Shown piece by piece: positions 21,701 to 58,425 of a stretch of DNA of 64,000 bases. The stretch is from Fibrobacteria bacterium (GTDB lineage Bacteria > Fibrobacterota > Fibrobacteria > UBA5070). The stretch's first letter is position 1. Every line of letters begins with the position of its first letter. The translations under genes and the position numbers were made by a program. A model generated the notes under the pieces. That model did no database searches. It was not told where the DNA came from and saw nothing but the letters and a program-made list of their open reading frames with translations. The stretch is from assembly GCA_020633825.1 (NCBI GenBank), contig JACKCV010000002.1, positions 139,553-203,552 on the forward strand, written 5' to 3'.

Positions 21701-21730
21701 CTTATCGGATGAATCATTCTTGCGTTTTAG
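21701..21730 (-). promoter_or_regulatory. Sigma-28 (FliA)-like promoter TAAAACGC-N12-TCCGATAA upstream of flagellin 1
   Basis: Minus-strand reading 'CTAAAACGCAAGAATGATTCATCCGATAAG', ~105-135 nt upstream of the ATG. Confidence 0.5.
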
Positions 21731-21836
21731 CCTTTATTCATCGGCATTCGCGAGTCGGCTAGACAGAAAACGACAAAGACCGCGCAGCCCGAAGGCGGCG
21801 CGGTCCCGAGTGCCTGGAAGGCTCTTCAGGGGGTCA

Positions 21837-22661: not shown

Positions 22662-22783
22662 GATGTCCAACCTCCGTGTCGGGCGTATGCAGGTGACGAC
22701 GCTTCCGGGAGAGGCTCCCGGAAGTTCCCTTCTTCGGTGGTTTCCTCCATCCTTGGAGGTCCCTTCCGACTCTTCTTCCATTC

Positions 22784-22810
22784 TTTCGGCGATTTGGCGG
22801 CGCGACTTGA
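22784..22810 (-). promoter_or_regulatory. Weak sigma-28-like promoter TCAAGTCG-N12-GCCGAAAG upstream of flagellin 2
   Basis: Minus-strand reading of 'ctttcggcgatttggcggcgcgacttga'; partial match to consensus. Confidence 0.3.
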
Positions 22811-23076
22811 GGGTTTTTTGGCGATCCAGGGGGGAAGGACGGAGCGATGCCGCCTCCCTGCGGTCCTGGGGAGGGAGGCGTCTCCGCGCCGCCGAGGAGG
22901 GGCAACCGCGCCGCGGAGGCGTCTTCGGGGGAATGCGTAGCTCCCGACCGATCGGTCGATCCCGGGGGGGGGCGGGGCGTTCGGCCAGAAAGGCCAAAGC
23001 CCGCCCCGGTAGATCCGGGACGGGCTCGAGGGATCTCCCCAAGGGAGGAGGGAGGAGAGGGGAGACCCCGTTTCGA

Positions 23077-23883: not shown

Positions 23884-24047
23884 GGGGAAACCTCCCTGTT
23901 TTGGAGCTTGCGGGCCGGCCCGCACGGCTTCCCTGCCGCGACGAGATCCGGAAGAAGCGGTTCGCGGTTCCGGCGCTTTGGGTGTTTCCACCCGCGCGAA
24001 CCTGCTTCCTGGATTGGTTGTTGGTTTGCCGGAAATTCATGGTGCGC

Positions 24048-25145
24048 CTACATCACGACCAGTTCGGCCTGGAGGGCGCCGGACTTCTGGATGGCCTCGA
24101 GGATCGCGATCAAGTCGCGGGGCGAGGCTCCCAGGGTGTTGAGGGCGCGGGCGAGTTCGCCCACGTTGGTGGAGGCGGGGAGGACGCGGACCTGGTCCTG
24201 GCGTTCCTCCGTCTGGATGGAAGGGGTGGCGGTGGTCCGGGTCGTGCCGGCCGCGAAGGCGTTGGGTTGGCTGGTCTGGTAGCCCGGGTCGACCTTGATG
24301 GTCAAGGATCCGTGGGTGACGGCGACCTCGTCGATGAGGACGTCCGATCCGGCGACGATGGTGCCGGTGCGTTCGTTGACCACGATCCGGGCGGGCCGGT
24401 CCATCTCCACCCGGAGGTTTTCCAGCTTGGCGATCAGGGAGGCCCGGCCTTCCTTGGGTTCCTTGCCCGTGAACCGGACGCTCGCCGCATCTTCCGCGAT
24501 CGCGCTCCCCTTGCCGAAGGCGGTTTCGATGGAGGTGGCCAATGCGGAGGCGACCGTGAAGTCCGGGCTGCGCAGCGAAAGTCGGAGCGGTCCGTCGTCG
24601 AGACGGACGGCGAGGTTCTCCCGTTGGACGATGGCGCCGGCGGGGATGACGCCCGTGGCGGATTGTCCTTGCGAGATGCTGGCTCCGGCGAGTCCCCTCT
24701 CGATCCCGCCCGCGGTGCCCAGCGGACCTTGGGCGACGGCGTAGAGTTCGCCATCCGGCCCCTTGAGCGGAGCCATCAGGAGGACGCCGCCGGTGAGGGA
24801 GCGTGCGTCGCCCATGGAGGAGACGTGGACGTCCACGCGCCCACCGGGTTTGGCGAAGGGAGGAAGGTCGGCCGTCACCAGGACCGCCGCGACATTGCGA
24901 AGCCGGATCTGGTTGCGGTCCACTTCCAGGCCCATGTTGCGCAAGAGGTTCAAGGTGGAGCGCTGGGTCACTCCCGATCCGGGGCCGTCCCCCGTACCGG
25001 CCAGTCCGACGACGAGTCCGTAGCCGAGGAGAGGCGTGCGGGAGACGCCCTGGACATCGGCCATGTCCTTGACCCTGACCTGCTGGCTCTGGACGGAAAC
25101 CGTCAGCAGCAGCACGGCGAACGGGATGTGGAACGCGGCGCGCAT
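24048..25145 (-). CDS. flgI: Flagellar P-ring protein FlgI
   Basis: Signal peptide then 'VKDMADVQGVSRTPLLGYGLVVGLAGTGD'; 365 aa; ATG overlaps the flgH stop (TGATG). Confidence 0.9.
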   Translation of the reverse strand: MRAAFHIPFAVLLLTVSVQSQQVRVKDMADVQGVSRTPLLGYGLVVGLAGTGDGPGSGVTQRSTLNLLRNMGLEVDRNQIRLRNVAAVLVTADLPPFAKPGGRVDVHVSSMGDARSLTGGVLLMAPLKGPDGELYAVAQGPLGTAGGIERGLAGASISQGQSATGVIPAGAIVQRENLAVRLDDGPLRLSLRSPDFTVASALATSIETAFGKGSAIAEDAASVRFTGKEPKEGRASLIAKLENLRVEMDRPARIVVNERTGTIVAGSDVLIDEVAVTHGSLTIKVDPGYQTSQPNAFAAGTTRTTATPSIQTEERQDQVRVLPASTNVGELARALNTLGASPRDLIAILEAIQKSGALQAELVVM

Positions 25146-25717
25146 CAGAAGATCCAGTCCAGGAAGCGGGCGATCGGCCCCTTGCGCGCGGCCTCGGAGT
25201 CGGCGCCCCGTCCCGAGTAGGTCACCTTGGCGTCGGCCAGACGGCCGGATCTCACGGTGTTTTCGGCGGAGATGTCCTCGGGGCGCAGCAATCCGGCGAC
25301 GGTGAGGATCTCGGTCTCGTCGTTGATCACGACCTGCTTGGTCCCTTCGACCCGGAGGGTTCCGTTGGGAAGGACTTCGATCACCCTCGCGCTGACCACG
25401 GCCTGCATGCTGCCTGCGCGGGAGGTGTTTCCAAGCCCCTTGAAATCGGCGTCCAGGGCGGACTTGGCGGAGGCGTCGGGGAGGAATCCCAGGATCCCGG
25501 ATCCCGCCTGCATTCCCACCGATCCCTTGGAGCTGCTCTGGGTGTTGGTCTGGGCGGCGTTGCGGGCGGTGTTGTCCTCCTCGACGAGGACCGTGACCAC
25601 GTCGTCCACGCGCCGGCTGCGGTGGTCGCTGGTGAGCGAGAAGTCGGAAGGAAGCCTCTCCGCCGCCGAAGCGACGGAAAGTGTCATGAGCGCTGCGATC
25701 GCGGATGGGATCTTCAT
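25145..25717 (-). CDS. flgH: Flagellar L-ring protein FlgH
   Basis: 190 aa with signal peptide; 'VTVLVEEDNTARNAAQTNTQ...' and position upstream of flgI. Confidence 0.8.
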   Translation of the reverse strand: MKIPSAIAALMTLSVASAAERLPSDFSLTSDHRSRRVDDVVTVLVEEDNTARNAAQTNTQSSSKGSVGMQAGSGILGFLPDASAKSALDADFKGLGNTSRAGSMQAVVSARVIEVLPNGTLRVEGTKQVVINDETEILTVAGLLRPEDISAENTVRSGRLADAKVTYSGRGADSEAARKGPIARFLDWIF

Positions 25718-26232
25718 CGTCTCGGCTCTCCGTCGAAGGGGTGGAAGGTTTCCGTTCGACGAGACTCCTAATCCAAAGTCGTGCCAATCCTCAGAATGGA
25801 GGTCTGGAGGGCGATTTTCCGCCGGGGGTGGACAGGTTTGCCTCCCCGGCGGAAGGCGGGGGAGCGGTTTCTGCCCACCGATGGGCGGCGATCCATCCCT
25901 CGGGGTACCGATCGTGCGGGGGAAACGAAACAGGCCTCCCCGGGAACGGGAAGGCCTGCCGAAATGGGACGAGGAGGGTCAGACTGGATGGCGGTTGCAT
26001 TCCCCGATTGCTTATATCCCCGCTGCCAGAGCCTGTCTGACCTACGACCAGCCGGAGTAAACTCCAGAGGGTCCTCCTCTGTAGGAAAAAGTATCACAAG
26101 CATCTGCTGTTGGCTAGACCCAAACGAACTCCGGAATGTGGGCTTCGCCAGGAGCGAGGGATCGAGGGGGCGTGCCCGGTCCGGTCTTCTGCTTGGGCCG
26201 CCCGCGGGATGCCAGCCTGGGAAAGCAAAAAG

Positions 26233-29531: not shown

Positions 29532-30818
29532 CTAGGGGGAGCTGCGCACCTTCCCGCGATTGTCGAAGACGACATGCCCGGATCCGTCGGAGCTTTTCCA
29601 GGTTCCCTGCGAGGTTCCGCCGGTCATCCTGCCTTGGAAACGGAGGGTGTCGCCGGAAGCGCGGATCACACGCAGTTCGATGGTTCCGTCGGTGAAGGGG
29701 GCGTCCGGTTCCAGCGGATGGTCCGGCTGGGCGTCGAGGAATACTTGACGTCCATCGGCCCCATGCAGCCGATGGCTGGTCAATCTCACCAGCCGGTCCC
29801 CTTGGCGATCCACGGGATCGAGGCTCGTTCGGACGAGCACGGTTTCCAGGAGGGTGTCGCGGGACAGGACGCGCACCTTCCGGAAGATCGCGGTATCCCC
29901 CGGGAAGAATGTGGAATCCTGTCGCGACCCGAACACCGCCTGTTCCACCCATGCGTCGCCGTCCCTTTCCAAGCGGGAGCGGAAACGTCGCGGATAGTTC
30001 CGCGATTCCTCGCGGAAAGCCTGGATCACACTGGATTCGGTCCGGATGCCGCCGGTTCCCAGAACCTGCCTCCGGTCCAGGGTGACCAATCCGGAGTCGG
30101 TCGGATGGGTGTAGATCGGGCCGGATGTGTCGGGCCAGGGGAGGACGGACCACCGGTCGAGGGTGTCGCCGTTTTCCCGAACGACCATGCGACTTCCGCT
30201 CCACAGCCCGTTGTCCGCTCCTGCCGCGTAGGACGAGTCGGGCCCGCCGTCGATGACGAGGTTGGTGGTGGTGACCAATCCTCCGAGGCGTTCCTTCCGG
30301 AGGATCCGGATCGGCAATCGGCTGCCGAGCAACGGGAATCCGGTCAGGGTGGTATCCGCCGGACGGTAGGTTTCGCGGACGCCCACGAGCCCCAAGGGGC
30401 CGGTGGAATCCTTGACCAGGATCCGGACGAGGGAGTCGGCCGGGCGGATCACGAGGGAGTCGTATTTCCTCCCTCCTTCTTCGGGGCATTCCACGGAGAA
30501 GATCACCGCCCAATCCCCGGAAAGGGTGGTGGTGGATTCCGGACGGCACTCCAGGAGCACCCGGCGAGCGGCTGCGGGTGCGGCCGACGCGATGTCCGAG
30601 TTGGTCCCCGAAATGGTGCCGGGAGAGGCGTTTTCCAGGGCGTTCCAGGATCGACTCGAATCGAGGCTTTCCACCAGGGCCGCTCCGAGGGCCTCCAGGC
30701 TGTTGGGGAAATCCTCGCCGCCGGCCGTGCGTTCCCCGGAGGAGCTTCCGCAGGAGGCGAGCCAAGGTGCGAGGGAGAGGCCGAGGGCCAGGAGCAGGAT
30801 TCTGGGGGTTGCCTTCAT
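29532..30818 (-). CDS. Lipoprotein, hypothetical (428 aa)
   Basis: 'MKATPRILLLALGLSLAPWLASC' lipobox; GGGAGG RBS. Start trimmed from ORF 29532..31601. Confidence 0.6.
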   Translation of the reverse strand: MKATPRILLLALGLSLAPWLASCGSSSGERTAGGEDFPNSLEALGAALVESLDSSRSWNALENASPGTISGTNSDIASAAPAAARRVLLECRPESTTTLSGDWAVIFSVECPEEGGRKYDSLVIRPADSLVRILVKDSTGPLGLVGVRETYRPADTTLTGFPLLGSRLPIRILRKERLGGLVTTTNLVIDGGPDSSYAAGADNGLWSGSRMVVRENGDTLDRWSVLPWPDTSGPIYTHPTDSGLVTLDRRQVLGTGGIRTESSVIQAFREESRNYPRRFRSRLERDGDAWVEQAVFGSRQDSTFFPGDTAIFRKVRVLSRDTLLETVLVRTSLDPVDRQGDRLVRLTSHRLHGADGRQVFLDAQPDHPLEPDAPFTDGTIELRVIRASGDTLRFQGRMTGGTSQGTWKSSDGSGHVVFDNRGKVRSSP

Positions 30819-31654
30819 GCTTTCCTCCCGGGATCGTTGGAGCGCGACCGGGGGAAGAACTGCAGGGAGAGCTGCATCACGCGGTCGGGGGATCGGTCCT
30901 CCTTGAGCAGACGGAAGACCTCTTCCCGGAAACTGTCGATCTTGTCGCGGATCTGGCGCTGGGTGGACTCGGAGACCGTGAGAAGGATGGAGGAGATGTG
31001 CCTCTGGTCCGGGCGGAACCTGCCGATCGCTTCCCCGGCATGGTCGATCCAGGTCCGGTTCAGGTTCCTGACGAGTTCCCCGAGGTGGGGGGGCGGTTCG
31101 ACGAAGGTGTCCACGACTTCCCGGCCCCTGTGGGGATCGTCGCGGACGAGGCCCCATTGGACGAGGTCCTGGATCATCTTCGACACCTGGTGGGGAGGCA
31201 GCGGCGGATCGAGGAACGCGCCGACCTCGGCCGGTTCGCTGCGCGAGGGGAGGCATTGGAGGGCCGCTCGCAACAAGGGGTAGCGATAGTCCTGGTAGTA
31301 CCTGGAGTGGGCGGGATTCATGCGGGTGAACGTGGAACGGTTCCTGCGGGTCAGAATTTGTCTGTAGCAGTCCTCGCGCTCCGACAGGGATCGGGTCTGG
31401 CCGAACCGGACCAGGAGACGGAAGTATTCCGCCTCCTTGGGACGCAGCCCGAATCCGGCGATCATCTTCTCCATGGCGACCTGGGAAAGCTTGCGCCTCC
31501 CCTTGATCACGTCCCCGAGGAACCCGGGGTTGGTGAGTCCGGCATCGCGCGCGAAGGCCCTGGTGCTGTACCTGCGGTTCCTCGAGAGCTTCTCCTCCCA
31601 CAGGTGCGCCAGAAGCTTGCGGAAGTCGTCATGTTCGTAGATGTCCAGCGCCAT
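30815..31654 (-). CDS. TIGR02147-like protein (Fibrobacter-type paralogous family, putative HTH)
   Basis: 'YEHDDFRKLLAHLWEEKLSRNRRYSTRAFARDAGLTNPGFLGDVIKGRRKLS...YFRLLVRFGQT' resembles the TIGR02147 N-terminal signature (from memory). Confidence 0.5.
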   Translation of the reverse strand: MALDIYEHDDFRKLLAHLWEEKLSRNRRYSTRAFARDAGLTNPGFLGDVIKGRRKLSQVAMEKMIAGFGLRPKEAEYFRLLVRFGQTRSLSEREDCYRQILTRRNRSTFTRMNPAHSRYYQDYRYPLLRAALQCLPSRSEPAEVGAFLDPPLPPHQVSKMIQDLVQWGLVRDDPHRGREVVDTFVEPPPHLGELVRNLNRTWIDHAGEAIGRFRPDQRHISSILLTVSESTQRQIRDKIDSFREEVFRLLKEDRSPDRVMQLSLQFFPRSRSNDPGRKA

Positions 31655-35524: not shown

Positions 35525-35683
35525 CATCGTCGAAGGGGAAATCCGGTCCTCGCGATCCCTGCCATCCCATGACGGATGGCGGGGATTTTTCGTTTGTGTT
35601 CCAGCTGTGACAATTTGCTTAACTTTGCAGTGCGGGAGATGCACCCCACGCGTCGCCCGGGACTCACCAACCTGGAAAAGAAG

Positions 35684-37189
35684 ATGAAACATTTCCTGCT
35701 CCCCATCGGCCTCGCGGCAAGCATCCTCTCGGCAGCCGAGCCGACCACTCCTTCCCTTGAGAACACGGTCGGCATCGGAGCTGGTGTTGGTGGTCAGATC
35801 TACAACGGCACGTTCGGGGAGGGAACCACCCTGACCGCGCGCGGGCTGGTCCGATACCATCCCCTGGAGTGGCTCGGGGCGAGGCTCGCGTGGGAGTACG
35901 GAAACCTGTCCAACGGGCAGGAATACTCCACCCAGGATCTGTCCCAGGTGTCCCTGGACCTCGTCCTCCAGCCGCAGGGGCGTTCGATGGGCGGATTCCG
36001 TCCCTACCTCGCTTCGGGCGTGTCCTACATGTTCGGCACCTCCACCTTGGAGAACGCACGGGGCGAAGCCGTGCAGAACAAGGATCTCACCGGGAACCTT
36101 TCGATCCCCGTCGAACTCGGGGCCGAGTTCCTCATCGACGAGAACTGGTCGATCTGGGGCTACGCCGCCTCCTACATCCACGCCCAGGAATGGGATCGAC
36201 TGGATGGAGAGCGCAGCGGGGAGGGGTACTTCGAGAATCGGGACGATGTGTACAGGGTGGGACTGGGTGCCACGTTCCGGTTCGGCATCCGCCTCGACGA
36301 GGATGGGGACATGGTCGTCGACGGACTCGACAAATGTCCCGGTACCCCCGCGAAGGTGAAGGTCGATCTGCAAGGGTGCCCGGTGGACAACGATTCGGAC
36401 CGGGTGCCCGATTACATGGACAAGTGCCCCGGTACTCCCAAGGCTTCCAATGTCGATTCCCTGGGGTGCCCGCTCGATGCCGACAAGGATGGGGTCGCCG
36501 ATTACGTCGATGTCTGTCCCAAGACCCCGACGGGCGTTCTGGTGGACTCCCGCGGGTGCCCGCTGGACGCCGACAAGGATGGGGTTCCCGATTTCCAGGA
36601 CAAATGCGGTTCCACCCCCGCCGGAGTGAAGGTCGATGCCCGAGGCTGCCCCGCGGACCTGGACAAGGATGGGGTCACCGACGACAAGGATGCTTGCCTC
36701 GGAACTCGTCCGGGGGTGAAAGTCGATGCCAAAGGCTGTCCCCTCGACCAGGACAAGGATGGCGTGGTCGACGATCAGGACAAGTGCCCCGGCACGAAAG
36801 CGGGGGAAAAGGTCGATTCCGTCGGATGCCCGCTCCTGGTGATCGAAAAAGGCGCTCGCCTGACCCTCGATGGGATCGTGTTCAAGACCGGTTCCGCCGA
36901 AATCGACAGTGTGAGCTTCCCCACGCTCGGTCGTGCCGCCGAAGCCCTGGCCAAGGCCCCGACGGTGGTCGTGGAGATCGCCGGATTCACCGACAATGTC
37001 GGCAAGGATGCCGCCAATCGCAATCTGTCGCGCCAGAGGGCCGAGGCGGTTCGGACCTATCTCGTCAAGCTCGGGGCCCCCAAGAAGTCCCTGACCGCCA
37101 AGGGGTACGGGGCGGCCGAGCCGGTCGCGGACAATGGCACGGAAGCTGGTCGAGCCCAGAACCGCCGGATCGAATTCCGCGTCAAGTAA
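35684..37189 (+). CDS. OmpA-family protein: N-terminal beta-barrel, thrombospondin type-3 (Ca-binding) repeats, C-terminal OmpA/MotB domain
   Basis: Signal 'MKHFLLPIGLAASILSA'; repeated 'DxDKDGVxDxxDKCPGT'; C-terminus 'VVEIAGFTDNVG...NRRIEFRV'. Confidence 0.85.
   Translation: MKHFLLPIGLAASILSAAEPTTPSLENTVGIGAGVGGQIYNGTFGEGTTLTARGLVRYHPLEWLGARLAWEYGNLSNGQEYSTQDLSQVSLDLVLQPQGRSMGGFRPYLASGVSYMFGTSTLENARGEAVQNKDLTGNLSIPVELGAEFLIDENWSIWGYAASYIHAQEWDRLDGERSGEGYFENRDDVYRVGLGATFRFGIRLDEDGDMVVDGLDKCPGTPAKVKVDLQGCPVDNDSDRVPDYMDKCPGTPKASNVDSLGCPLDADKDGVADYVDVCPKTPTGVLVDSRGCPLDADKDGVPDFQDKCGSTPAGVKVDARGCPADLDKDGVTDDKDACLGTRPGVKVDAKGCPLDQDKDGVVDDQDKCPGTKAGEKVDSVGCPLLVIEKGARLTLDGIVFKTGSAEIDSVSFPTLGRAAEALAKAPTVVVEIAGFTDNVGKDAANRNLSRQRAEAVRTYLVKLGAPKKSLTAKGYGAAEPVADNGTEAGRAQNRRIEFRVK
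36330..36820 (+). repeat. ~69-bp tandem repeats (x~7) encoding TSP3 units within the ompA-family gene
   Basis: Recurrent 'ggctgccc..gacaaggatggggt...gac..gtgccc' units visible at DNA level. Confidence 0.7.
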
Positions 37190-37325
37190 CGGTCGCCCCG
37201 TGCTGGTCGACTCCGCGCCGGATCCCGCTGAAACGCCTGTCGAGGGTGGCCTTTTCGCCGCCCCCATCGATGGGGCGGTCGTCAGACTCCTCCATGCGGC
37301 CTTCCTGCTGCGCGGGGGGGAGGCG

Positions 37326-38591
37326 ATGGCTCGCGAATTCTGGTCCGGCCATCCCCTCGACACCCCGGATGGATCCGTTCTGACGGGTGCGTCCCTGCAC
37401 GAGAGGGTCTGGTCCGAGGCGAGTCGATACCCCTGCGATTGGATCGTCCGTGTCCTGGATTCCATCGAATCCTTCTGCCTTCGCCATGGGATCGGTCATT
37501 TGGAATGGATCCGGCAGACACTCGTGGAAGTCCACGACGGATGCCTGCTTTCGTCCAAGTCCTGCCTCAGGATGGTGGGAAGACACCTCGGCGAATTCCT
37601 CGGAGGGGAAGATCTGCACGACACCCTCCTGCGGCTGTTGCACTCCGAGACGCGCGGGAGCGGGATCGAATTGCGCCTGGTTCGTCGCGACGATTCGTCC
37701 GAGAAGCGAGGAGCCTGGATCCAAGCCCGGTTCACCGGATCCTGCGGTGAAATCAAATCCAGTGCCGTGGCTTCCTGGCTCGCCATGGTGCTGGAAGTCC
37801 TCCCCAGGAGGTTCGGTGGCGCCAGTTTCGACAGCGTTCGAATCCTGGCGGACACCCGCTCCATGATCGATGCGCTCACCTGGTCCGGGCGTTTGCCCGA
37901 TGTGCGGAAATCCGGCGGCAAGTGGATCGGCCCCAAAGGAATCCTCTCCGAATCCGTGGAGACAGCCCAGTGGGCACGCGGAATCGGTCTGCCGGAAATC
38001 GTCGAGGATTGCGAGGCCTCCGGAAATGCCGACCAGGTCCTGCAGGATTGGAGGTGTTCCCAGCGGAAACGCAAGATCCTGTCGACGGGATCCCTGCTGG
38101 GCGCTCCCTGGTGCTTGTTCCGCGTGGAATGGACTCGGGAGCCTTCCGCTCTCGCCGCGTCCTTGGGGCATCTGATCCGCGAGGTCACGGAGGATCGGTT
38201 GAACGAGTCCTGGATGCGCGCCGAGGCCTTGCACGAAAAGATGATCGCGGCCGATCGACACCGGTTGGAGTTCGTGTACCACCTCGGGGACGAGACCATC
38301 TCCTGCAATGGAAATCACCTGCTGCGCGGTGTTCCCGCGAAGATCCTGCAGAAGGTGCTGATCGCGCATACCGTCACAGGGCGCACGCTCTTCGAGCACC
38401 GGGAGTTCCGGCGCGACCCGGATTTGAACCTGGATCCAGCCAACCCCAACCTGGAAAGTCGACTGCGGTTGCTTTCGCAGAGGCTCGAAGATCGATTGCC
38501 CGGCTTCCGGCTATGCAAGGCGGGACGCGGGAAGTTTCAAATTGAAACGGATGTCGGGTTGGCGTACATGGAAGACGTCCCCATTACTTAA
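37326..38591 (+). CDS. Hypothetical protein (~420 aa)
   Basis: Co-directional after the OmpA-family gene; start guessed at 'MAREFW'. No recognisable motif. Confidence 0.4.
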   Translation: MAREFWSGHPLDTPDGSVLTGASLHERVWSEASRYPCDWIVRVLDSIESFCLRHGIGHLEWIRQTLVEVHDGCLLSSKSCLRMVGRHLGEFLGGEDLHDTLLRLLHSETRGSGIELRLVRRDDSSEKRGAWIQARFTGSCGEIKSSAVASWLAMVLEVLPRRFGGASFDSVRILADTRSMIDALTWSGRLPDVRKSGGKWIGPKGILSESVETAQWARGIGLPEIVEDCEASGNADQVLQDWRCSQRKRKILSTGSLLGAPWCLFRVEWTREPSALAASLGHLIREVTEDRLNESWMRAEALHEKMIAADRHRLEFVYHLGDETISCNGNHLLRGVPAKILQKVLIAHTVTGRTLFEHREFRRDPDLNLDPANPNLESRLRLLSQRLEDRLPGFRLCKAGRGKFQIETDVGLAYMEDVPIT

Positions 38592-38933
38592 GCTTTTCTT
38601 ATGCTTTTCTTAAGTGGGTGGCGGCATACATTATAAACATCATACCGCCAGTTCCCTGCGGGTGGGCGGGTCGGTTCTCCAAAAGAATCGGCCCGCCTTT
38701 TTTTTGCGGAAATTCGACGCTGGTTGTGCTTCGTTCACGGTTTGAGCACAGATTCGTCGTCTGATTCCACTTCGATCCGGGAAACACCCTGCCAGTCCAA
38801 GGACTCGGGTGTAAACTGTCACGGATTGTAGCTGGATCCAGTGAGATCGCTCCCTCTGGTTCCAGGTCCTGGCGGGCCTCTCACACCGTCTGAAAATGGC
38901 CCCAAGGTTTGGTTTCGAACGCTCGAGGTTTTC

Positions 38934-41900
38934 ATGACTCGCATTCGTGGTCTGGGTTTGCTTCTTGGTATTGCCATGGTTCTGGGGATTCCCAGTTCTT
39001 CGATGGCCGGGAAGACGTTGATGTTCCTGATGGACGAGTACATCATTTCCAACACCGACTCGGTGGCGGGAACCCCTCAAGTTTGGATCCAGCACTACGA
39101 TTCGGCCGCCGCCAATGTGGGGTACTACTACGGCGCCAAGGACCTCTTCCTGACCCAGACCGACGCGTACGCCAAACCGATTCCGGTCCACAGTGCCGAG
39201 CCGGACTCCATTCCCTATCCCCGGCAGCTGGAGCGTTGGTGGTATTCGCTGCCGGATTTCAACTCGGCCCAATTCCGCGAGGGCAAGGTCCGTCTGACCA
39301 TGCAGTACATGATGGTCATGCACCGGTGGCTCAATGGAAATCCCAGCCGGATGCAGATCGATACCCAGTCCAATCGCGGCAATTCCACCACCTCGGAACT
39401 GAATACCCCGACCTCTCGCGAGATCGACAACTGCATCGATACCCTCCATGGGGACACCATCTGGATTCGGCATACGGCATCCGACAACGACTCCGTCGGG
39501 ACCATTTCCAACAACCCCAGTGCCGCTTCCATGCGTTGCTACGACCACAATCCCTTCTTCAAGAAGGTTGGAACGGTCCACGTCCTGAATCCCTGGCCGG
39601 GGAAAACCGTTTGGGCGCAGGTGGGGACGGAATGGTACCCGCTCTACGCCGAGCCGGGGCGGGCGGGTTGGGTGACGGCCTCCCTCTGGCAGGATCCGCG
39701 GACCGCGGCACCCTTCGTGGTTCGATTCGCCAATGGGGACCCTCGGGTCTCGTCCGCGGTGACGTACATGGATGCGGGCGGACTTGCCGGAAACGCCTCG
39801 GGCATCGGTTTGGATTTCACGGCCAATGCCGGCAAGAGCGTCTGGGTGATTCCGCCGACCGGGGCGCTTCCGGCTCCCACCGTTTCCACGGTCCAGCCGG
39901 CGAAGAAGCTCACGCTCATGATTCACCGGCCGGCTTGGAACGCCTCCGCGGTCCGTGTGATGTGGAAGGGGATGGATGCCAGGTTCATCGCCTCCAGCAC
40001 CGAGTATTGCGATTGGTTCAGCATGGACTTCTACGAGGGAGCCGTTCCCGAGCAGATCGTTCTGCGCCAACCCTTCGTGGATTCCCTCTTCGGGCAGAAC
40101 GGCTTGGCTGCAGCCCCGGCGCTGATGAGCAACTTCACCGACTGGATCACGGTGAATCCCGTCCTGGCCGCCAGCGGGACCTTGTGGCTCGAGACCGACG
40201 GCAACCGGGCGACCTTCCTCGGGACGGCTCCCGCCACCGCCACCATCTGCAACGAAAAGATCCTGGCCTTTTCGGCCTGGGACTTCTCCAAGATCTACAA
40301 CCCCTACAAGCCCTTCACCGAAGGGCTCGGATACAAGACGGACAACTGCCCGACCTCTGGAGGCAAGGAAACCAAGGGACTGGTCCTTCCCACCCTCAAC
40401 AGCAAGGGGGTTCCCACCTGGAGCGGCAAGGTCGACTGCAACATCGGCAACACCCTCGATGGTCCCCAGTACTGGTTCGACACCTTGGTCCGGGGAGGTG
40501 TTCCGATGAATTCCTTCACCTGCGTGCCGCTGCCCCTGACCCTGGACGCCACCGGATACTACAAGTACTCCAATCCGACGTTCTTTCCCCTGGACACCTT
40601 CACGACGTTGCGTGACGGAACACCCAACCGGTTCAACGACAAGGAATACAACAGCCGGAACAACAACTTCGGCTTCTGCATGCACGCCAAGGCTTCGTTC
40701 GAATACGTTCCGGGCTTGCAGTTCCGGTTCCGCGGGGACGACGACGTCTGGGTCTTCATCGACAAGAAACTCGCCATGGACATCGGCGGGCAGCATGGTC
40801 CCGTGGACGGGGACATCAAGCTCGACAATCTCGGCCTGAGCGAGGGCAAGTCCTACCAGTTCGACATGTTCTACTGCGAACGCCACGAACTCGGCTCGTC
40901 CATCCTGATCCAGACCACCATGAACCTGGTCCCGACCATCGATGTCGAATTCGACAGTTCGGGGGCGAAGCCGGGGGTGTACGACTACATCTCCTGGATC
41001 AAGGAGACGACCAATCGCGCCGACATCTGCCCGGAGCTGGGGGCGGCCACCGCCACCAACAAGCGCAGAGGCCCGGCCATCTACACCCTGGTGAGTCCCG
41101 ACCTCACGGAAATCACCCTGGATTCCCTGGTGGCGACGCAGTACCCGGGATTGGTGATCACCGACCTGAACTCCCACATCGCCATCGACACGGCGGCCCT
41201 GAAGAAATCGGGTCGGCTGGTCACCAGCGGTCTGTACCAGATCCGGATCAACGTCGGATCCGAGGAACGCATCGTTCCATTCACCATTTCCTCCGACGCC
41301 GTGCAGGTGTTCGGGGTGTTGCTGGACCGGAATGGAGACGGTCAGCCCGACAGCGTGGTCCTGAAGACGGACGACCAGGCGGCGTCGTTCCGTGTACCGG
41401 TTTCGGCGACCCTGCGATGGGCCGACCGCTCGGGGGTACCCGATTCGGTTTCGGTCCCCTCCACCAATCTCCACAAATATCCCGGGGATTCCACTCTGAC
41501 CGGTGGCTTCCTCCTCCCGTCCCGAACCAGTTGCCCCCCCGCCGGATGCACCGGGAACATGGGAGCCGTCTACACCGCCAACGGGGGCGACACGGTCTAC
41601 AACCCGATCGTCGAACTCCGGGATGGAATGGCTCCCGTCGCCGACAGTGCTTGGCTGATCTACGACTCCACGGGATTGGGCAAGGATACCTTGTTCGTGA
41701 TCGCCTCCGAAGCCTTGGTCGCCACCATGAAGGCTGCACTTCCCGTGGGCGATTCGGCCTTCGTCCTGACTGGTCGATCGATTGCCGCACGGCCGGTCCC
41801 CGGGACCGCCATCCTGGTCGGGAACCTCCTGAAACTTCCCATCGATCCCGCGACCAATCCCATCCAGCCCGGGGATTCCATCCGCCTGGGTGGATGGTCG

Positions 41901-44900
41901 GGCGACGTGTTCGCCAATTCGCCGCGTGAACTCTCGCGCTGGGTTCCCTTGTACGCCAATCCCGTCGCGAAGTCCTGGATGCTCGATGTCGATGGAAACG
42001 GCGCCCCCGATTCCGTGGGGATCATGGTCCGCGGGACTCTCCGTTCGGCCACCGCCGCGAAGATCCACTGGAAGACCGCCGCAGGTGTGGACACCGTGAT
42101 CCAGATGACCACCCCGACGGGAATCGGGACCGGTCTTAGGCTCCCCCCCGACATTCTCGCCAATGCGACCCTCTGCACCGGATGCTTCATGGAAGTCACC
42201 ATGGGCGGGGTGGACCAGCGGATCGTTCTTCTCGACTCCGTTCCCGCGGTGGCCTTGTCGGCCAAACTCCGCTACGGGGTCAGCAAGGACACCCTGCTGG
42301 TGGAAGTGTCGGAACCCTTCGCGATCGGAAACGCTCCCGGGGAAGGGACGGTGGCGGTGAAGGCGGCAGGGTCTGCCTCCATCCCGGGCACCCTGGTTGC
42401 GGGGCAGGCCACGGCCGGCCCCCGTTGGCTCACCCTGGTGGTGGACACCGGAGCCGTGCAAGCCGATTCCGTGCGTCTGCGCGCCTGGATCCTGGGCAAC
42501 CTGAACGTCCCGGTCGGGGCCGTCTCTCCCTACGTCCCGCTCGTCTACGGTCCCCAGCCCATCTCGGTGGCCTTGTTCGATCGCAACGGGGACGGAAAAG
42601 CCGATTGGGTGCGCTTCCACATGGTCCGCTCCGCGACCGGTGCTCCGAACCCGGCAGGGTTCGCCGTCTCCTGGGCCGGAGCCGTGGCTCGGGCGGCATC
42701 CCTTCCGAAATCCGCCGACGGTAGGACTTGGTCCGGTCCGATCGGCCCTCTTCCCTTCGGCACGGCCTGCGACGCGGGATGCCTGGGATGGGTGACGACC
42801 ATTGCCGGCGATTCCCTCTCGTTCCGATCCGCGGTCGAGGACTCGGTGCCGCCCGTCGCCGTTTCCGCCCGCCTGGGATACGGCTTGGCCGGCGATCCCG
42901 ACACCCTCGACGTCACGGCTTCGGAGCCCCTTCTCGCGGGAGCCGCGGGAGCTTGGGTGGAGACGGGAACCAACCGCTCCCTCGTCCATGGAACCCTGGT
43001 CGCCACCCCCTCCTCCAGCTCGGTGCAGGGGAAGAGGATGGTCCTCCTCGTTCCTTCGGGGACGGTTTCCGACGGCGATTCCCTCTTGCGCCTGGGGGCG
43101 CGAATGGGAGATTCCGGACGCGCATTCGTCGGCGACACCTCCGCCTGGGTACCCCTCGCCTCGTCGGTCAAGGGTGTGGCGCTCCTCCTCGATTCCGACC
43201 AGGATGGTGCACCGGACTCGATCCAGTTCGACGTGCGTGGAAGGCTCGCGGCCGGATCCGCCCGCATCGGCTGGTCCGAGGACGCCTCCGGCAAGGCCGA
43301 CGTCGTGGTGCCTTCCGGAATGGCCGGCTCCTGGGGTGGCCCCCTGGTCAAGGCGCTTCCCGTGGGAGCCACTTCCTGCCAGGTCTCGGCAGGTTGCACG
43401 GTCACGCTCGCCGATGGCACCGTGTTGCCGTTGCTGGACGGGGTTCCTCCCGTCGCGACCAAGGCCCGGTACCGGTTCGGCGCCAATGCCAACGACCCCG
43501 ACACCCTGATCGTGGACGGATCCGAAACCCTCCAACTCCAAGCCGCTGGGAACGCCTGGCTGGATTGGGGGATTCCAGGCACCCGTCGCGAGCCTGTTCC
43601 CAGTCTGCAGGCGGGTTTGGTCAACTCCAACCCCCGCTCCATCGTGGCGCTGGTGCGACTTCCCGAAGGCGTGGAGATCACCGCGACGCATGCCGGATTC
43701 GCCGTGGCTCCCCAACTCCAGGGTTTCGCGGATCTCCTCGGCAATCAGCCTGGCACCTTCAGCCCGATGGTCCCGATCGAGTTCGGTCCTCCGCCGATGA
43801 TCGGTGTCCTCGCCGATCGCAACGGCGACGGCTATCCCGAAGGTGTGAGGTTCACCATCCTGCGCAAGACTCCGGCGCCTCCCGCCGCCGATTCCTTCAC
43901 GGTCCGGTGGAACGACGAGAAGGGAACTCCGCTCACGCGCCGGATCGCCGCCTCCAGCTTGACCTGGGACGGATCGACCAGTTGGGTGGGCGACCTCGCC
44001 ACGCCCTTCCCCTACGGAGCCACCTCCTGCCTCGGATCCTGCGGCGGAGCGGCTCTCGATCCGGCCGGTGCCAGCCTGCCTCTGCGGACCCTGATCGACT
44101 CGATCCCGCCGGTTCCCGTCCAGGCGTCCTACCGGTACAGTCTGCCGGAGGAAGCCCGCGACACCTTGCGGGTCGTCCTGTCGGAGCCATGGGCCAATCC
44201 CGATCCGAACAACTCCCGTTTGACCGATGCCATCGTCGCCTTGGGCGGCGCGGGGAATTCCAACCCTCTCACGTCCGCGCTCTCGTGGTCCCTGGCCGAG
44301 GATGGCAAAACGCTGATCTTCGTCTTGGATCCCATGAAGACGGTCGTGGGTGCCAAGGACAGTGTCCGGCTGGTCGGACTCCCGACCGCTCGCGTCCACG
44401 ACGCCGCTTCGAATGCCCCCGGAGCCGTGGCTCCGTGGTTCCCGATCGACTTCGGACTTCGTCCCCCCTGGCTCTACGTCGGCCCATGGCCTGGATTCAT
44501 CAAGCGGCCCGCCGACGAAGTGTGGTCCACCTATCCGGCCGGGACACCGCCGCTCACCGTGGAATGGCGTCCCGTCAAAGGCTCGTCCAGCAATCCCGTC
44601 CCCGCCGGGGATTGGAAGTTGCTGGCCGGCTCCGGTCCCGATTCCTCCCGCTCCCTGGGCCTTCTCCTGAACTTGAACCGACCCGTGGACGGGCACCTGT
44701 ACATCTACGACAACATCGGCATCCACGTCACCGACATCTCCCTGGACATGATCGCCAAGGCGTGGGCCGATGGTGGTTCCCCGGATGCGAGCCGTCAGGT
44801 GGTGATCCGTTGGAAGGGAATCGACAAGACCGGGGCGCTTTCCTCTCCCGGTGTGTACCTGTGGCGTCTGATCCTTTGGCAGATCCCGGATGATCCCCAT

Positions 44901-44951
44901 GCCGAGAAGGAGATCACCAACACGATCTACACCTTCGGATGGGCTCCTTGA
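38934..44951 (+). CDS. Giant secreted protein (~2005 aa) with fibro-slime/PA14-like domain and five ~207-aa tandem repeats
   Basis: Signal 'MTRIRGLGLLLGIAMVLGIPSSSMA'; 'FRFRGDDDVWVFIDKKLAMDIGGQHG...YQFDMFYCERHELGSSILIQTTM' matches the fibro-slime (TIGR02148-like) signature. Confidence 0.8.
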   Translation: MTRIRGLGLLLGIAMVLGIPSSSMAGKTLMFLMDEYIISNTDSVAGTPQVWIQHYDSAAANVGYYYGAKDLFLTQTDAYAKPIPVHSAEPDSIPYPRQLERWWYSLPDFNSAQFREGKVRLTMQYMMVMHRWLNGNPSRMQIDTQSNRGNSTTSELNTPTSREIDNCIDTLHGDTIWIRHTASDNDSVGTISNNPSAASMRCYDHNPFFKKVGTVHVLNPWPGKTVWAQVGTEWYPLYAEPGRAGWVTASLWQDPRTAAPFVVRFANGDPRVSSAVTYMDAGGLAGNASGIGLDFTANAGKSVWVIPPTGALPAPTVSTVQPAKKLTLMIHRPAWNASAVRVMWKGMDARFIASSTEYCDWFSMDFYEGAVPEQIVLRQPFVDSLFGQNGLAAAPALMSNFTDWITVNPVLAASGTLWLETDGNRATFLGTAPATATICNEKILAFSAWDFSKIYNPYKPFTEGLGYKTDNCPTSGGKETKGLVLPTLNSKGVPTWSGKVDCNIGNTLDGPQYWFDTLVRGGVPMNSFTCVPLPLTLDATGYYKYSNPTFFPLDTFTTLRDGTPNRFNDKEYNSRNNNFGFCMHAKASFEYVPGLQFRFRGDDDVWVFIDKKLAMDIGGQHGPVDGDIKLDNLGLSEGKSYQFDMFYCERHELGSSILIQTTMNLVPTIDVEFDSSGAKPGVYDYISWIKETTNRADICPELGAATATNKRRGPAIYTLVSPDLTEITLDSLVATQYPGLVITDLNSHIAIDTAALKKSGRLVTSGLYQIRINVGSEERIVPFTISSDAVQVFGVLLDRNGDGQPDSVVLKTDDQAASFRVPVSATLRWADRSGVPDSVSVPSTNLHKYPGDSTLTGGFLLPSRTSCPPAGCTGNMGAVYTANGGDTVYNPIVELRDGMAPVADSAWLIYDSTGLGKDTLFVIASEALVATMKAALPVGDSAFVLTGRSIAARPVPGTAILVGNLLKLPIDPATNPIQPGDSIRLGGWSGDVFANSPRELSRWVPLYANPVAKSWMLDVDGNGAPDSVGIMVRGTLRSATAAKIHWKTAAGVDTVIQMTTPTGIGTGLRLPPDILANATLCTGCFMEVTMGGVDQRIVLLDSVPAVALSAKLRYGVSKDTLLVEVSEPFAIGNAPGEGTVAVKAAGSASIPGTLVAGQATAGPRWLTLVVDTGAVQADSVRLRAWILGNLNVPVGAVSPYVPLVYGPQPISVALFDRNGDGKADWVRFHMVRSATGAPNPAGFAVSWAGAVARAASLPKSADGRTWSGPIGPLPFGTACDAGCLGWVTTIAGDSLSFRSAVEDSVPPVAVSARLGYGLAGDPDTLDVTASEPLLAGAAGAWVETGTNRSLVHGTLVATPSSSSVQGKRMVLLVPSGTVSDGDSLLRLGARMGDSGRAFVGDTSAWVPLASSVKGVALLLDSDQDGAPDSIQFDVRGRLAAGSARIGWSEDASGKADVVVPSGMAGSWGGPLVKALPVGATSCQVSAGCTVTLADGTVLPLLDGVPPVATKARYRFGANANDPDTLIVDGSETLQLQAAGNAWLDWGIPGTRREPVPSLQAGLVNSNPRSIVALVRLPEGVEITATHAGFAVAPQLQGFADLLGNQPGTFSPMVPIEFGPPPMIGVLADRNGDGYPEGVRFTILRKTPAPPAADSFTVRWNDEKGTPLTRRIAASSLTWDGSTSWVGDLATPFPYGATSCLGSCGGAALDPAGASLPLRTLIDSIPPVPVQASYRYSLPEEARDTLRVVLSEPWANPDPNNSRLTDAIVALGGAGNSNPLTSALSWSLAEDGKTLIFVLDPMKTVVGAKDSVRLVGLPTARVHDAASNAPGAVAPWFPIDFGLRPPWLYVGPWPGFIKRPADEVWSTYPAGTPPLTVEWRPVKGSSSNPVPAGDWKLLAGSGPDSSRSLGLLLNLNRPVDGHLYIYDNIGIHVTDISLDMIAKAWADGGSPDASRQVVIRWKGIDKTGALSSPGVYLWRLILWQIPDDPHAEKEITNTIYTFGWAP
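41300..44400 (+). repeat. Five diverged protein-level tandem repeats (~620 nt each) inside the giant gene
   Basis: Each unit has a 'D(R/V/S)(N/D)GDGxPD' motif and '(D/E)S(V/I)PPVAVSARLxYG...DTLxVxxSEP'. Anchors at ~41322, 41985, 42580, 43192, 43812. Confidence 0.6.
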
Positions 44952-44988: not shown

Positions 44989-45026
44989 GACCCCATCGGA
45001 TGCCTTCCGGTGGGGTCTTTCTTTTC
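44989..45026 (+). terminator. Intrinsic terminator (11-bp stem with 1 mismatch GACCCCATCGG/CCGGTGGGGTC, 7-nt loop, TTTCTTTTC)
   Basis: Located 38 nt after the giant gene stop. Confidence 0.6.
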
Positions 45027-45145
45027 TAGATCCTTCCCCCGGCACGATCCTTCACCAAGGAGTCTCCCTGACCTCGAACGTCCCACCCCCGGGAGCGCGC
45101 CCATCGCCTTCCCGGTCGCATGGTCCCTCCCTCCCTCGACAGTCG

Positions 45146-46654
45146 GTGGCATGGGTGCTGGCCGTCCTCCTTGGCCTCCTCCCGGGTTGCCAGATCCGGA
45201 CCGTGTCCTCGGAGCTGGAAGATTCCGACCGCGTGGCCTACGATCCCCAGGCGGAGCCCGGAGGAGGGATCCTCAAGCTCCGGATCCCGGAACCGGGACG
45301 GGATGCGGAGGAAGTGCTCGAGCCCGTCCCGCACGCCGAGACACCGCCCGGACAGCTTGCCGGAAATTGGTCGGAGGAGCTCGCGCTGGTTCCGACCCCC
45401 GTCTGGTCCTATTCGAAGGAGTACTGGTGGGGCTGGTTGCTGCTCCATCTGTTCGCCATCGAAAGGGACCGGTTGGTGGATCCCCGTCGCTGGAGGACGC
45501 AGGGTCTGGAGTCCCTCTACGTCGCGAGCACCCGCACGGGAGGGACCCACGACCGCTTCACCCGCTACATCCCGCCCGCGCAAGCCTCCCAGGTGACCTC
45601 CTACCTCACCGGAGAATCGAAGGAGCACGCCTTCGGATTCTTCCTGCGCGCCCTCGCCGGAGACACCGCCGTCGTCGGTTCGGTGGTCGCGGGAAGCCCG
45701 GCCCACCAAGCCGGGTTGCGAAGGGACGATCGACTCCTCGAGCTCGATGGCGAGGAATACCGCAGCCGGGTCGCCACCATCGATCGGACCCGGCCGCAGA
45801 AGCATTCCCTGTCCTTCTACCGACCCGCGGACGGCAGGGTCCGGACCGTCGACATGACCACCTCCGTGGTCCGGTTCCCGTCGGTGTGGGCCGATACCCT
45901 CGACGGCGGAGTCGGATACGTCCAGATCATCCAATTCCTGTCCGAACCTCAGGATCGGACGGATTCGGTTTTCGTCTCGGCCCTCGCGGAGATGCAGGCG
46001 ATCCGGAGGGAGGGGAGGGGCTGGATCCTCGATCTGCGAGGAAACGGTGGAGGGACGATCGCCTCCTCCCAGGGCGTGGCGGGAGCCCTCCTCGGGGAGG
46101 GCGTTCCCCTCGTGCGCGTGACGGATCGCGACTTGCAGACCGGGCCTTCCCGGCTCCAGGGGGTCACCCGGACGCGTTTCCTGGAAAGCACGGCGGAATG
46201 GAAGGTCCCGGTGCCACCGGGAACCGTCCTCGTGCTCCAGGACCAGGGGACCGCATCCGCCTCGGAAATCCTGATCAACGGATTGAGGGAGAATCTCCCT
46301 GCGCAGGCGATGATCAGCTTCGGAACCCTGTCCTACGGCAAGGGGATCGGACAGGTGTACCTGGAGTCCCCCTTGGGGGGCCTCTATGCCGTGACCTGCA
46401 TGCACATCGATCCACTCCAGGCACCTCGATACCATGGCGTCGGCATCGAACCCGATCGCAAGACGACCTCCGACGAGGCCCTCCGGACTGCGCTGCTCGA
46501 ATTCGCCGATCCCGCCGGTGCCGCCCGTCTCGCGCCTGCGGCACTGGTCGGAGGTGGGGAACGATTCGCCTTGGACTGGAATCGGAGGCGGGCGAGTCGA
46601 AAGGTCGCGCCGTTGCGGACCGTCTCGCTTCCGGGGGGTGTGGGGATCTTCTGA
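45146..46654 (+). CDS. S41-family C-terminal processing peptidase (lipoprotein, PDZ-containing)
   Basis: Lipobox 'LLGLLPGC'; 'LDLRGNGGG', 'GTASASEILINGL', 'YGKGIGQ' S41 motifs; GTG start. Confidence 0.85.
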   Translation: MAWVLAVLLGLLPGCQIRTVSSELEDSDRVAYDPQAEPGGGILKLRIPEPGRDAEEVLEPVPHAETPPGQLAGNWSEELALVPTPVWSYSKEYWWGWLLLHLFAIERDRLVDPRRWRTQGLESLYVASTRTGGTHDRFTRYIPPAQASQVTSYLTGESKEHAFGFFLRALAGDTAVVGSVVAGSPAHQAGLRRDDRLLELDGEEYRSRVATIDRTRPQKHSLSFYRPADGRVRTVDMTTSVVRFPSVWADTLDGGVGYVQIIQFLSEPQDRTDSVFVSALAEMQAIRREGRGWILDLRGNGGGTIASSQGVAGALLGEGVPLVRVTDRDLQTGPSRLQGVTRTRFLESTAEWKVPVPPGTVLVLQDQGTASASEILINGLRENLPAQAMISFGTLSYGKGIGQVYLESPLGGLYAVTCMHIDPLQAPRYHGVGIEPDRKTTSDEALRTALLEFADPAGAARLAPAALVGGGERFALDWNRRRASRKVAPLRTVSLPGGVGIF

Positions 46655-57475: not shown

Positions 57476-58425
57476 CGGAAACTGTCGGAAAGATCCTGGT
57501 CACCGGTGCCGGCGGATTCGTCGGCTCGTGGATGGTCAGGAGGCTGCTCGACTCGGGTGCGGATGTCGTGGCCGGGGTGCACAACCTGAGGCACGACATC
57601 GACCTCGGTGTGGAGACCGCGGTACTCGACCTCGACGACGCGTCCTCCGTTTTCACCTTGATCGAGCGCGTCCGACCCGCTGGCATCGTGCATCTGGCCG
57701 GTCTGGCCTCTCCCCACATCGCCAATTCCCGGCCCGAGGTCGCCCATCGGGTGAATTTCCTGGGGACATTGCGCCTGCTCGAGGCCTGCAAATCGGCCAA
57801 GCTGGGGTGTCCCGTGGTGATCGCGGGATCGGCGACGGTGTACGGCAGGGTGGAACTCGATGAACTCCCGCTGCGGGAAACCCAGCCATTGCGTCCCGCC
57901 GACCACTATTCCCTTTCCAAGGCCGGGCAGGAGAGCCTCGCGTCGCTGTACTCCGGGGAGTTTCCGGTGATGGTCGCGCGTCCCTTCAACCACACCGGTC
58001 CCGGACAGGTTCGCGACTTCGCGCTGCCGGCCTTCGCCGCCCAGATCGCACGTATCGAGTCGGGAAGGCAGGAGCCGGTGCTGCATGTCGGGGACCTCAG
58101 CGCGGAGAGGGAGTTCCTCCACGTTTCCGATGTGGTGGACGCCTACGCGATCCTCCTGGCCCGCAGGGTTTCCGGGACCTACAACGTGTGCACAGGCAAC
58201 GCGCTTCCGATGAAAGCCTGGCTCGATCGCCTGGTGGCGCAGGCCAAGGTGCCCATCTCCATCACAACCGATCCGCGACGGGTCTTCCCCCAAGGGAACC
58301 CTCGACTCGCCGGGGACTCCGGGAGATTGCGGGCCCTGGGGTGGAGTCCGCGTTTTACCGGGGACGAGATCCTCGCGGACCTTCTCGCCTATTGGCGCTC
58401 GAGGATCGCATCGGGGGAGGAGTGA
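57466..58425 (+). CDS. NAD-dependent epimerase/dehydratase (SDR; GDP-sugar reductase/epimerase-like)
   Basis: 'VTGAGGFVGS' Rossmann motif; 'YSLSK' catalytic YxxxK; GTG start overlaps the dapA-like stop. Confidence 0.8.
   Translation: MALTETVGKILVTGAGGFVGSWMVRRLLDSGADVVAGVHNLRHDIDLGVETAVLDLDDASSVFTLIERVRPAGIVHLAGLASPHIANSRPEVAHRVNFLGTLRLLEACKSAKLGCPVVIAGSATVYGRVELDELPLRETQPLRPADHYSLSKAGQESLASLYSGEFPVMVARPFNHTGPGQVRDFALPAFAAQIARIESGRQEPVLHVGDLSAEREFLHVSDVVDAYAILLARRVSGTYNVCTGNALPMKAWLDRLVAQAKVPISITTDPRRVFPQGNPRLAGDSGRLRALGWSPRFTGDEILADLLAYWRSRIASGEE

Follow-up and report, generated by a model that had tools for sequence, protein, structure and literature searches.

Gene and transcription unit

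The window analysed here, a stretch of 64,000 nucleotides (nt) on the forward strand of contig JACKCV010000002.1 (positions 139,553 to 203,552; assembly GCA_020633825.1) of a Fibrobacteria bacterium, contains a gene for a giant fibro-slime protein at 38934..44951. Coordinates are those of the window, and all features lie on its + strand unless stated otherwise. The gene forms part of the longest open reading frame (ORF) of its region (38841..44951) and starts with an ATG at 38934, where the sequence GAGG 5 nt upstream provides a ribosome-binding site, giving a product of 2005 amino acids plus the stop codon. Its G+C content at third codon positions is 0.80 and its codon-position G+C pattern is that of a real gene, in a window where G+C lies between 60 and 68% throughout. 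The product is 100% identical to GenBank entry MCB9496326.1, described as 'MAG: fibro-slime domain-containing protein [Fibrobacteria bacterium]' (MAG, metagenome-assembled genome) on a 629-kb contig; an exact-sequence look-up with both start variants returned no match.

The gene is flanked by intrinsic terminators on both sides. The terminator of the preceding gene (38664..38698) consists of a 15-bp stem with a T7 tail, while that of the giant gene (44989..45027) lies 38 nt past the stop codon and has a perfect, GC-rich 12-bp stem (44989..45017) followed by TTTCTTTTCT, with a folding z-score of -4.3. The giant gene therefore constitutes an isolated, monocistronic transcription unit. No RNA element was found in the whole window with Rfam, which argues that there is no riboswitch in the 235-nt leader. 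Both the gene of about 2005 codons and the strong terminator downstream had been proposed in a first-pass annotation, made from the sequence alone, and both are borne out.

Domain architecture of the giant protein

The N-terminus, MTRIRGLGLLLGIAMVLGIPSSSMA followed by GK, reads as a Sec-type signal peptide (residues 1-26; 38934..39011), in which MTRIR precedes a hydrophobic core and SMA stands before the glycine, as judged by eye and not with a predictor. Residues 27-470 (39012..40343) form a conserved N-terminal region without a family match. Its first part, residues 27-300, is seen only in the giant-protein family and its paralogues, whereas the sequence from about residue 300 onward is common to the giant protein and the fibro-slime proteins of Fibrobacter. 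The Fibro_Slime model TIGR02148 is matched over its full length at residues 577-665 (40662..40928) with 118.2 bits (cutoff 45), within a PA14-type module that forms a putative carbohydrate-binding head and scores 26.7 bits with PA14 itself (PF07691; cutoff 24). With both models above their cutoffs and the N-terminal signal in place, the secreted giant fibro-slime/PA14 protein that had been predicted is confirmed, and it is a member of an already annotated adhesin family.

Five diverged tandem repeats of about 205 residues, starting near residues 785, 1005, 1203, 1407 and 1615, follow the head region. Each carries a DxDxDG loop, at residues 798, 1018, 1216, 1420 and 1628 (mean spacing 207.5 residues), which reads DRNGDGQPD in unit 1 (residues 785-1004; 41286..41945), DVDGNGAPD in unit 2 (residues 1005-1202; 41946..42539), DRNGDGKAD in unit 3 (residues 1203-1406; 42540..43151), DSDQDGAPD in unit 4 (residues 1407-1614; 43152..43775) and DRNGDGYPE in unit 5 (residues 1615-1824; 43776..44405). 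The repeats are 26-37% identical among themselves, and their pairwise BLASTP E-values of 1e-6 to 1e-19 place them well beyond chance. The five-fold repetition noted in the first-pass annotation thus holds, as does its conserved 'D[SG][VIM][PA]P[VA]...DTLxVxxSE' block, present in all five units in variant forms; its DRNGDGxPD loop is likewise found in every unit, in the variant forms given above. Less survives of its paired cysteines. There are exactly two cysteines per repeat, 3-6 residues apart (867/872, 1081/1084, 1279/1283, 1482/1488 and 1699/1703), but the literal CxxGC spacing occurs in one of the five pairs only and the pair is not conserved in the orthologues. A defining disulfide was rejected as a general feature, the pair being missing from many orthologous repeats.

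An AlphaFold2 model of repeat 3, built with an alignment of 55 repeat sequences, shows two successive all-beta, immunoglobulin (Ig)-like domains (mean pLDDT 91.1, pTM 0.83), and in the first of them the DxDxDG loop joins strands one and two. All 55 aligned repeats have Asp14 and Gly19 (numbered within the unit) unchanged. The unit matched no named sequence family: searches of two units against Pfam and NCBIfam at E-values up to 10 returned only a chance match to GatD_N (E 0.019) and no profile match to Big_1-5, Cadherin, Calx-beta or fn3, and a word-index search with the repeat profile (A3) gave a single irrelevant match. The five double modules may together make up a stalk ten Ig-like domains long, which calcium would probably stiffen.

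The C-terminal domain and its carriers

Residues 1907-2005 (44652..44948) form a C-terminal beta-sandwich with the motifs LNRP, IYDNxG, WxG...SGVYLxRL and GW, here considered a candidate signal for sorting to, or anchoring in, the outer membrane. The beta segment before it (residues 1840-1906; 44451..44651) packs against it in the model and is common to a subset of the other cargo proteins. AlphaFold2 predicts the last 166 residues as all-beta with one short helix (pLDDT 88.9, pTM 0.84). The fold matches of the domain are generic, with T9SS (type IX secretion system) C-terminal domains among them, and a Foldseek search against the PDB was uninformative. The C-terminus of the window protein gave no match to Pfam or NCBIfam models at E-values up to 10. 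The sole sequence family touched by the domain is the FlgD Ig-like domain (FlgD_ig, PF13860), weakly matched by 13 of 17 orthologue C-termini below the gathering score (best E 1e-4) but not by the window protein itself, whose context is not flagellar. The C-terminal profile searched against PDB sequences likewise retrieved FlgD only, at an E-value of 0.43 and with the same motif pattern, IYDxxG...WxGxxxxGxxxxxGxY. Across the 17 sequences, 'YDNxG' keeps its Asp and its Gly without exception.

Searched exhaustively with HMMER, the 99-position C-terminal profile (A4) identified 256 representative clusters; a word-index search with the same profile had given two fragments only. All 143 fetched proteins with near-full matches have the domain no further than 25 residues from their C-terminus, and 119 of them no further than 5. 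One to six repeat units precede it in 80 of 84 apparently full-length carriers, 39 of which lack a fibro-slime domain. A census of 26 non-fibro-slime carriers comprises eight glycoside hydrolase family 9 (GH9) cellulases and six Calx-beta proteins, along with proteins bearing fn3, VWA, DUF642 and choice-of-anchor C domains. The GH9 carrier P0023 consists of CelD_N, GH9 and fn3 domains followed by three repeat units and the C-terminal domain; it shares 28% identity with the window protein across 849 residues, and stands in tandem with a second giant GH9 protein that carries the same C-terminal domain. The domain is thus always terminal and is attached to unrelated heads, as would be expected of a sorting or anchoring signal and not of a binding module. 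The repeat or repeats plus the C-terminal domain constitute a portable and previously undescribed cassette, common to fibro-slime, GH9 and Calx-beta proteins.

Two loci show this cassette in particular arrangements. At 2366..16255 (+) of L085, a JGI metagenome contig, tandem giant GH9 cellulases (2488 and 2084 residues) both end in the cassette, and the pair adjoins a flagellar gene cluster. In L005 (16302..22356, +), a fibro-slime paralogue of 1499 residues breaks off midway through a repeat, and the C-terminal domain is encoded by the small ORF that follows (21187..22356); this looks like a split gene resulting from a frameshift, an assembly error or pseudogene formation.

The domain extends to other Fibrobacterota. 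Profile comparison with hhalign against the C-termini of fibro-slime proteins gave probabilities of 97% for those of Chitinispirillaceae and 95% for those of Fibrobacter, and five of ten C-termini sampled from fibro-slime proteins of other Fibrobacterota, mostly those of the Chitinispirillaceae type, touch FlgD_ig and CHU_C below threshold (CHU_C at E 0.004-0.1). A 'flgD' domain on a fibro-slime protein of the Chitinivibrionia was noted by Abdul Rahman et al. and read as flagellar (PMC4704652), and the present results suggest that it is the C-terminal domain described here. In other phyla, small fibro-slime proteins (250-450 residues) of Proteobacteria and Verrucomicrobia have PEP-CTERM-like tails, in which VPEP or VPDGG is followed by a hydrophobic stretch and then RRK, as read from the matched ORFs in L052, L055, L059, L063, L070 and L071. 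These tails fit with a fibro-slime head that is regularly coupled to the surface-sorting signal of its own lineage.

Relatives and evolution of the giant protein

Twenty-two relatives of the giant protein with 40-58% identity were found, all from metagenomes or MAGs of Fibrobacteria or Fibrobacterota, of which 21 are full-length (1811-2039 residues) and one is truncated at the C-terminus. They align end to end with a mean column identity of 57%. Five repeat units are present in 17 of the full-length relatives and four units in the remaining 4 of 21. Repeat 3 is 37-60% identical to the orthologous repeat 3 of relatives and only 19-34% identical to the other repeats. Orthologous repeats being closer than sibling repeats, the array of five is ancient and conserved in position, not the product of a recent expansion.

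When one genome of each GTDB species was scanned with the whole giant-protein family as query, full-length relatives occurred in two species genomes only, both Fibrobacterota; the fibro-slime motif was found at more than 567 loci, among them loci in Fibrobacter, Chitinispirillaceae, Nannocystis and other Myxococcota, Cellvibrio, Holophaga and Verrucomicrobia. By tblastn, residues ~300-785 are 26-30% identical (E 1e-35 to 1e-41) to fibro-slime proteins of Fibrobacter spp., which are about 1300 residues long and have one copy of the repeat unit. The giant protein may thus be viewed as a long-stalked relative of the classical fibro-slime proteins of F. succinogenes. Fibro-slime genes of the Fibrobacter type are also found on contigs binned under other names, L025 ('Methanomethylophilaceae archaeon') and L031 ('Oscillospiraceae bacterium'); their C-termini are nearly the same as that of a Fibrobacter MAG (L026), and they are probably binning contamination.

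Proposed function and alternative explanations

The giant gene probably encodes a surface adhesin for polysaccharide, with cellulose as the likely ligand. The protein would be exported through Sec by means of its N-terminal signal peptide. Its N-terminal ~750 residues would form a binding head containing the PA14-type fibro-slime domain, held off the cell by a ten-Ig stalk of five double-Ig modules, each with a calcium-type DxDxDG loop in its first Ig-like domain. The last ~98 residues may act as an outer-membrane sorting or anchoring signal in the style of FlgD-Ig and T9SS C-terminal domains, type IX-like secretion being the most likely route. So projected, the head could bind cellulose or a related glycan. 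Fibro-slime proteins of F. succinogenes bind cellulose and are induced on it, and antibodies raised to them reduced adhesion by 62% (PMC4668043, PMC3079729, PMC6851124). The same cassette is found on GH9 cellulases of related genomes, which makes it probable that a common mechanism displays adhesin and enzymes alike.

The weak resemblance of the C-terminus to a T9SS sorting domain, remarked upon in the first-pass annotation, finds a partial counterpart in these results. A terminal beta-sandwich on unrelated heads is present throughout the 143 carriers, and its resemblances are to FlgD_ig and to the C-terminal domains of T9SS cargo; it matches none of the T9SS models. The T9SS has been reported in the FCB group (PMC11285876, PMC5831590) and is placed by reviews in the FCB superphylum including the Fibrobacterota (PMC11285876, PMC11205867). 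Its C-terminal domains have a conserved Gly in a b3-b4-type turn and a Lys in the last strand (PMC11285876), and a T9SS signal was proposed by Raut et al. in the basic terminal domain of cellulases from F. succinogenes (PMC6851124). The isoelectric point (pI) of the C-terminal domain has a median of 9.2 across carriers, in which it resembles that F. succinogenes domain. The last residues of the window protein are ...GWAP, those of its three closest relatives ...GWKP, and more distant ones have a basic tail, usually with Lys. The giant protein is like T9SS cargo in its architecture, and export by a T9SS is plausible, but it is not assigned to the T9SS cargo proteins.

Several observations weigh against an adhesin of this kind. 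The window C-terminus matches none of the T9SS sorting-domain models (TIGR04183, PF18962 and CHU_C/TIGR04131) at E-values up to 10, TIGR04183 is matched by 0 of 26 other carriers (E<=0.01), and PF18962 is not among the families returned for these 26 (Pfam, E<=0.001). Solved T9SS C-terminal domains are sandwiches of 3+4 strands (b1-b7). The C-terminal domain is apparently one hairpin short of type A C-terminal domains and has a helix inserted. Its copy in the window is an atypical one, being acidic (pI 5.4, set against the family median), and has a Thr in the last strand where most relatives have Lys or Arg. No T9SS component is found among ~35 window genes scanned with Pfam. In F. succinogenes, secretion is ascribed by Burnet et al. 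to type II and III systems, and its fibro-slime proteins were found mostly in the medium (PMC4668043). Calcium binding by the repeats is predicted from the loop motif, and in distant orthologues this motif has degenerated in repeat 5. The genome scan also placed the fibro-slime domain in non-cellulolytic Myxococcota and Proteobacteria, and the ligand specificity of the head is putative, given the range of glycans bound by PA14 domains.

The C-terminal domain could instead be an ordinary terminal Ig-like domain, docking non-covalently onto envelope partners such as OmpA-type or tetratricopeptide repeat (TPR) proteins or lipopolysaccharide, or an oligomeriser, on a protein exported by the type II secretion system (T2SS) or in outer-membrane vesicles. 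We consider this somewhat unlikely, although its generic fold matches and the lack of a T9SS model match would suit it. OmpA, TPR, fibro-slime and cellulase proteins are found complexed in F. succinogenes vesicles (PMC6851124), and a T2SS-based model with mainly extracellular fibro-slime proteins has been put forward (PMC4668043). A gene for an OmpA-family protein (35576..37189), with an outer-membrane beta-barrel, thrombospondin type-3 (TSP3) calcium-binding repeats and an OmpA peptidoglycan-binding domain, is located upstream of the giant gene in the window and also in a relative with ~58% identity; it is not adjacent in more distant orthologue loci, and its product is at most a possible envelope partner of the giant protein. 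A docking domain need not be terminal, yet in none of the 143 carriers is this domain more than 25 residues from the C-terminus, and both its resemblance to FlgD_ig and CHU_C and the basic pI fit known sorting domains. A related question concerns the ligand. The giant protein could be a surface or matrix protein directed at a glycan other than cellulose, at exopolysaccharide made by the cell itself or at other cells, as in a biofilm or floc, an explanation that appears rather unlikely. PA14 domains, as in PA14/GLEYA adhesins, bind diverse carbohydrates, the fibro-slime domain is widespread outside cellulolytic taxa (Nannocystis, Holophaga, Verrucomicrobia), the cassette is also carried by Calx-beta proteins and, in the window, no gene for a carbohydrate-active enzyme adjoins the giant gene. 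The cassette is, however, common to GH9 cellulases, and at the orthologue locus L003 a gene for a GH9 enzyme with a family 30 carbohydrate-binding module (GH9-CBM30) and one for an AraC regulator adjoin the orthologue. Cellulose binding has moreover been reported from experiments on the Fibrobacter members of the family (PMC4668043, PMC3079729), as noted above.

The first-pass annotation had suggested a novel adhesin or S-layer-like system, whose precursor would be matured by the adjacent S41 lipoprotein. The downstream gene itself is as described: at 45146..46654, on the same strand and 195 nt beyond the giant gene, lies a gene for a C-terminal-processing-type peptidase with Peptidase_S41 and PDZ matches and a plausible lipobox (LLPGC), a probable lipoprotein for which an exact look-up returned short Logan contigs only. 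The two genes are adjacent in L001 and L002, from the same species, and in L006 and L007, from the ~58% relative, which is what speaks for a processing role. The strong terminator nevertheless separates the two genes, and no S41 gene stands beside the orthologues at L003/L004, L005/L008 or L009, nor is one present at any of the other fibro-slime loci that were fetched (~75). In L003/L004 the neighbours are AraC and GH9-CBM30 genes upstream and SBD and GGDEF-EAL genes downstream, while L005/L008 contain a cluster of four fibro-slime paralogues adjoining a prepilin peptidase gene. The conserved neighbours of the S41 gene are a SPOR-domain gene, an M23 peptidase gene, a radical-SAM gene and ribD. 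S41 proteases such as Prc and CtpA control cell-wall hydrolases of the M23 and NlpC/P60 types, and PorU, which is the signal peptidase of the T9SS, does not belong to the S41 family. The S41 gene belongs to a separate cell-wall housekeeping cluster, its adjacency to the giant gene being local synteny, and its proposed role in processing is not upheld. As to an S-layer, the giant protein has no match to S-layer, Big_5 or SLH families. What stands of the suggestion is an adhesin, of a family already known, and the system as first conceived is highly improbable.

For the preferred surface adhesin, a more far-reaching possibility may be raised tentatively. The C-terminal domain and the calcium-loop double-Ig modules before it could represent a Fibrobacterota-specific surface-display cassette that existing models do not cover, be it a new kind of T9SS-type signal or a sorting route of its own, serving both fibro-slime adhesins and giant GH9 cellulases. 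How adhesins and cellulases are retained at the surface of Fibrobacter-type bacteria without cellulosomes is debated, with T2SS and free enzymes, vesicles, OmpA/TPR complexes and the T9SS as the options. In relatives of Fibrobacter, one C-terminal module, a double-Ig stalk with a terminal beta-sandwich, is common to the adhesin and to giant GH9 cellulases, and its C-terminal domain is detectable on Fibrobacter fibro-slime proteins too. If the proposal is true, the cassette would supply the anchoring principle that has been missing for non-cellulosomal, contact-dependent cellulolysis in the phylum, Fibrobacter included. The C-terminal profile could be used to find the surface-displayed cellulolytic repertoire in Fibrobacterota MAGs. 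The novelty of the locus lies in this stalk-plus-C-terminal-domain cassette, the gene being otherwise an ordinary member of a known family.

Comparison with known systems

The closest counterparts of the giant protein are the fibro-slime proteins of F. succinogenes, namely the 180-kDa cellulose-binding protein and its nine paralogues, with which it shares the signal peptide and the fibro-slime/PA14 domain. The homologous flank (residues ~300-785), the repeat unit and the C-terminal domain are also common to both. The giant protein differs in its five repeats, its length of ~2000 residues and its extra residues 27-300, compared with one repeat and ~1300 residues in the Fibrobacter proteins; it comes from a high-GC (65%), flagellated and uncultured lineage of the Fibrobacteria, distinct from Fibrobacter. 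As in F. succinogenes, paralogue clusters and GH9 neighbours occur at some loci of the giant-protein family (PMC3079729).

Cargo proteins of the T9SS, including Bacteroidota cellulases with type A (TIGR04183/PF18962) or type B (CHU_C) domains, resemble the giant protein in having a Sec signal and a large modular body. A beta-sandwich of ~70-100 residues at the extreme C-terminus, usually basic and found on enzymes and adhesins alike, is a feature of T9SS cargo and likewise of the proteins carrying the cassette. The giant protein is set apart by the absence of an above-threshold match to a sorting model, the apparent missing hairpin and the inserted helix. A different comparison is offered by the ice-binding adhesin of Marinomonas primoryensis, LapA and SiiE, in which the ligand region, which can include a PA14-type sugar-binding domain, is carried on a long array of calcium-stiffened Ig-like domains. 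These giant adhesins are substrates of type I secretion, with RTX-type C-terminal signals, N-terminal retention modules and no Sec signal peptide, and their arrays are of single BIg repeats in far larger numbers. Their layout, a head on an Ig array, is like that of the giant protein, but no sequence relationship between them was found.

Other genes of the window

Between the OmpA-TSP3 gene and the giant gene lies an ORF of 485 codons (37134..38591, +) with gene-like codon bias, followed by the terminator at 38664..38698. It has no Pfam or NCBIfam match and is missing at that position in L006/L007, and it was rejected as a part of the system.

A gene for a DUF4423 protein is found at 30815..31654 (-); this family is expanded in Fibrobacter (TIGR02147), which is consistent with the phylum assignment. 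Three flagellin genes in tandem (20771..21595, 21837..23042 and 23077..23991, all -) and flgI (24048..25787, -) are also encoded in the window; the host is a flagellated member of the Fibrobacteria with a G+C content of 65%, unlike Fibrobacter itself. Flagellated Fibrobacteria outside Fibrobacter have been described by Abdul Rahman et al. (PMC4704652), with which the genes of the window agree.

The window also carries cytochrome b/bd genes. Two further large proteins are candidates for envelope biogenesis, the first of 1357 residues (58188..62261, +), without a Pfam match, ending in ...LRYRWEFW and possibly TamB-like, and the second an AsmA/DUF748-like protein of 986 residues (2902..5862, +).

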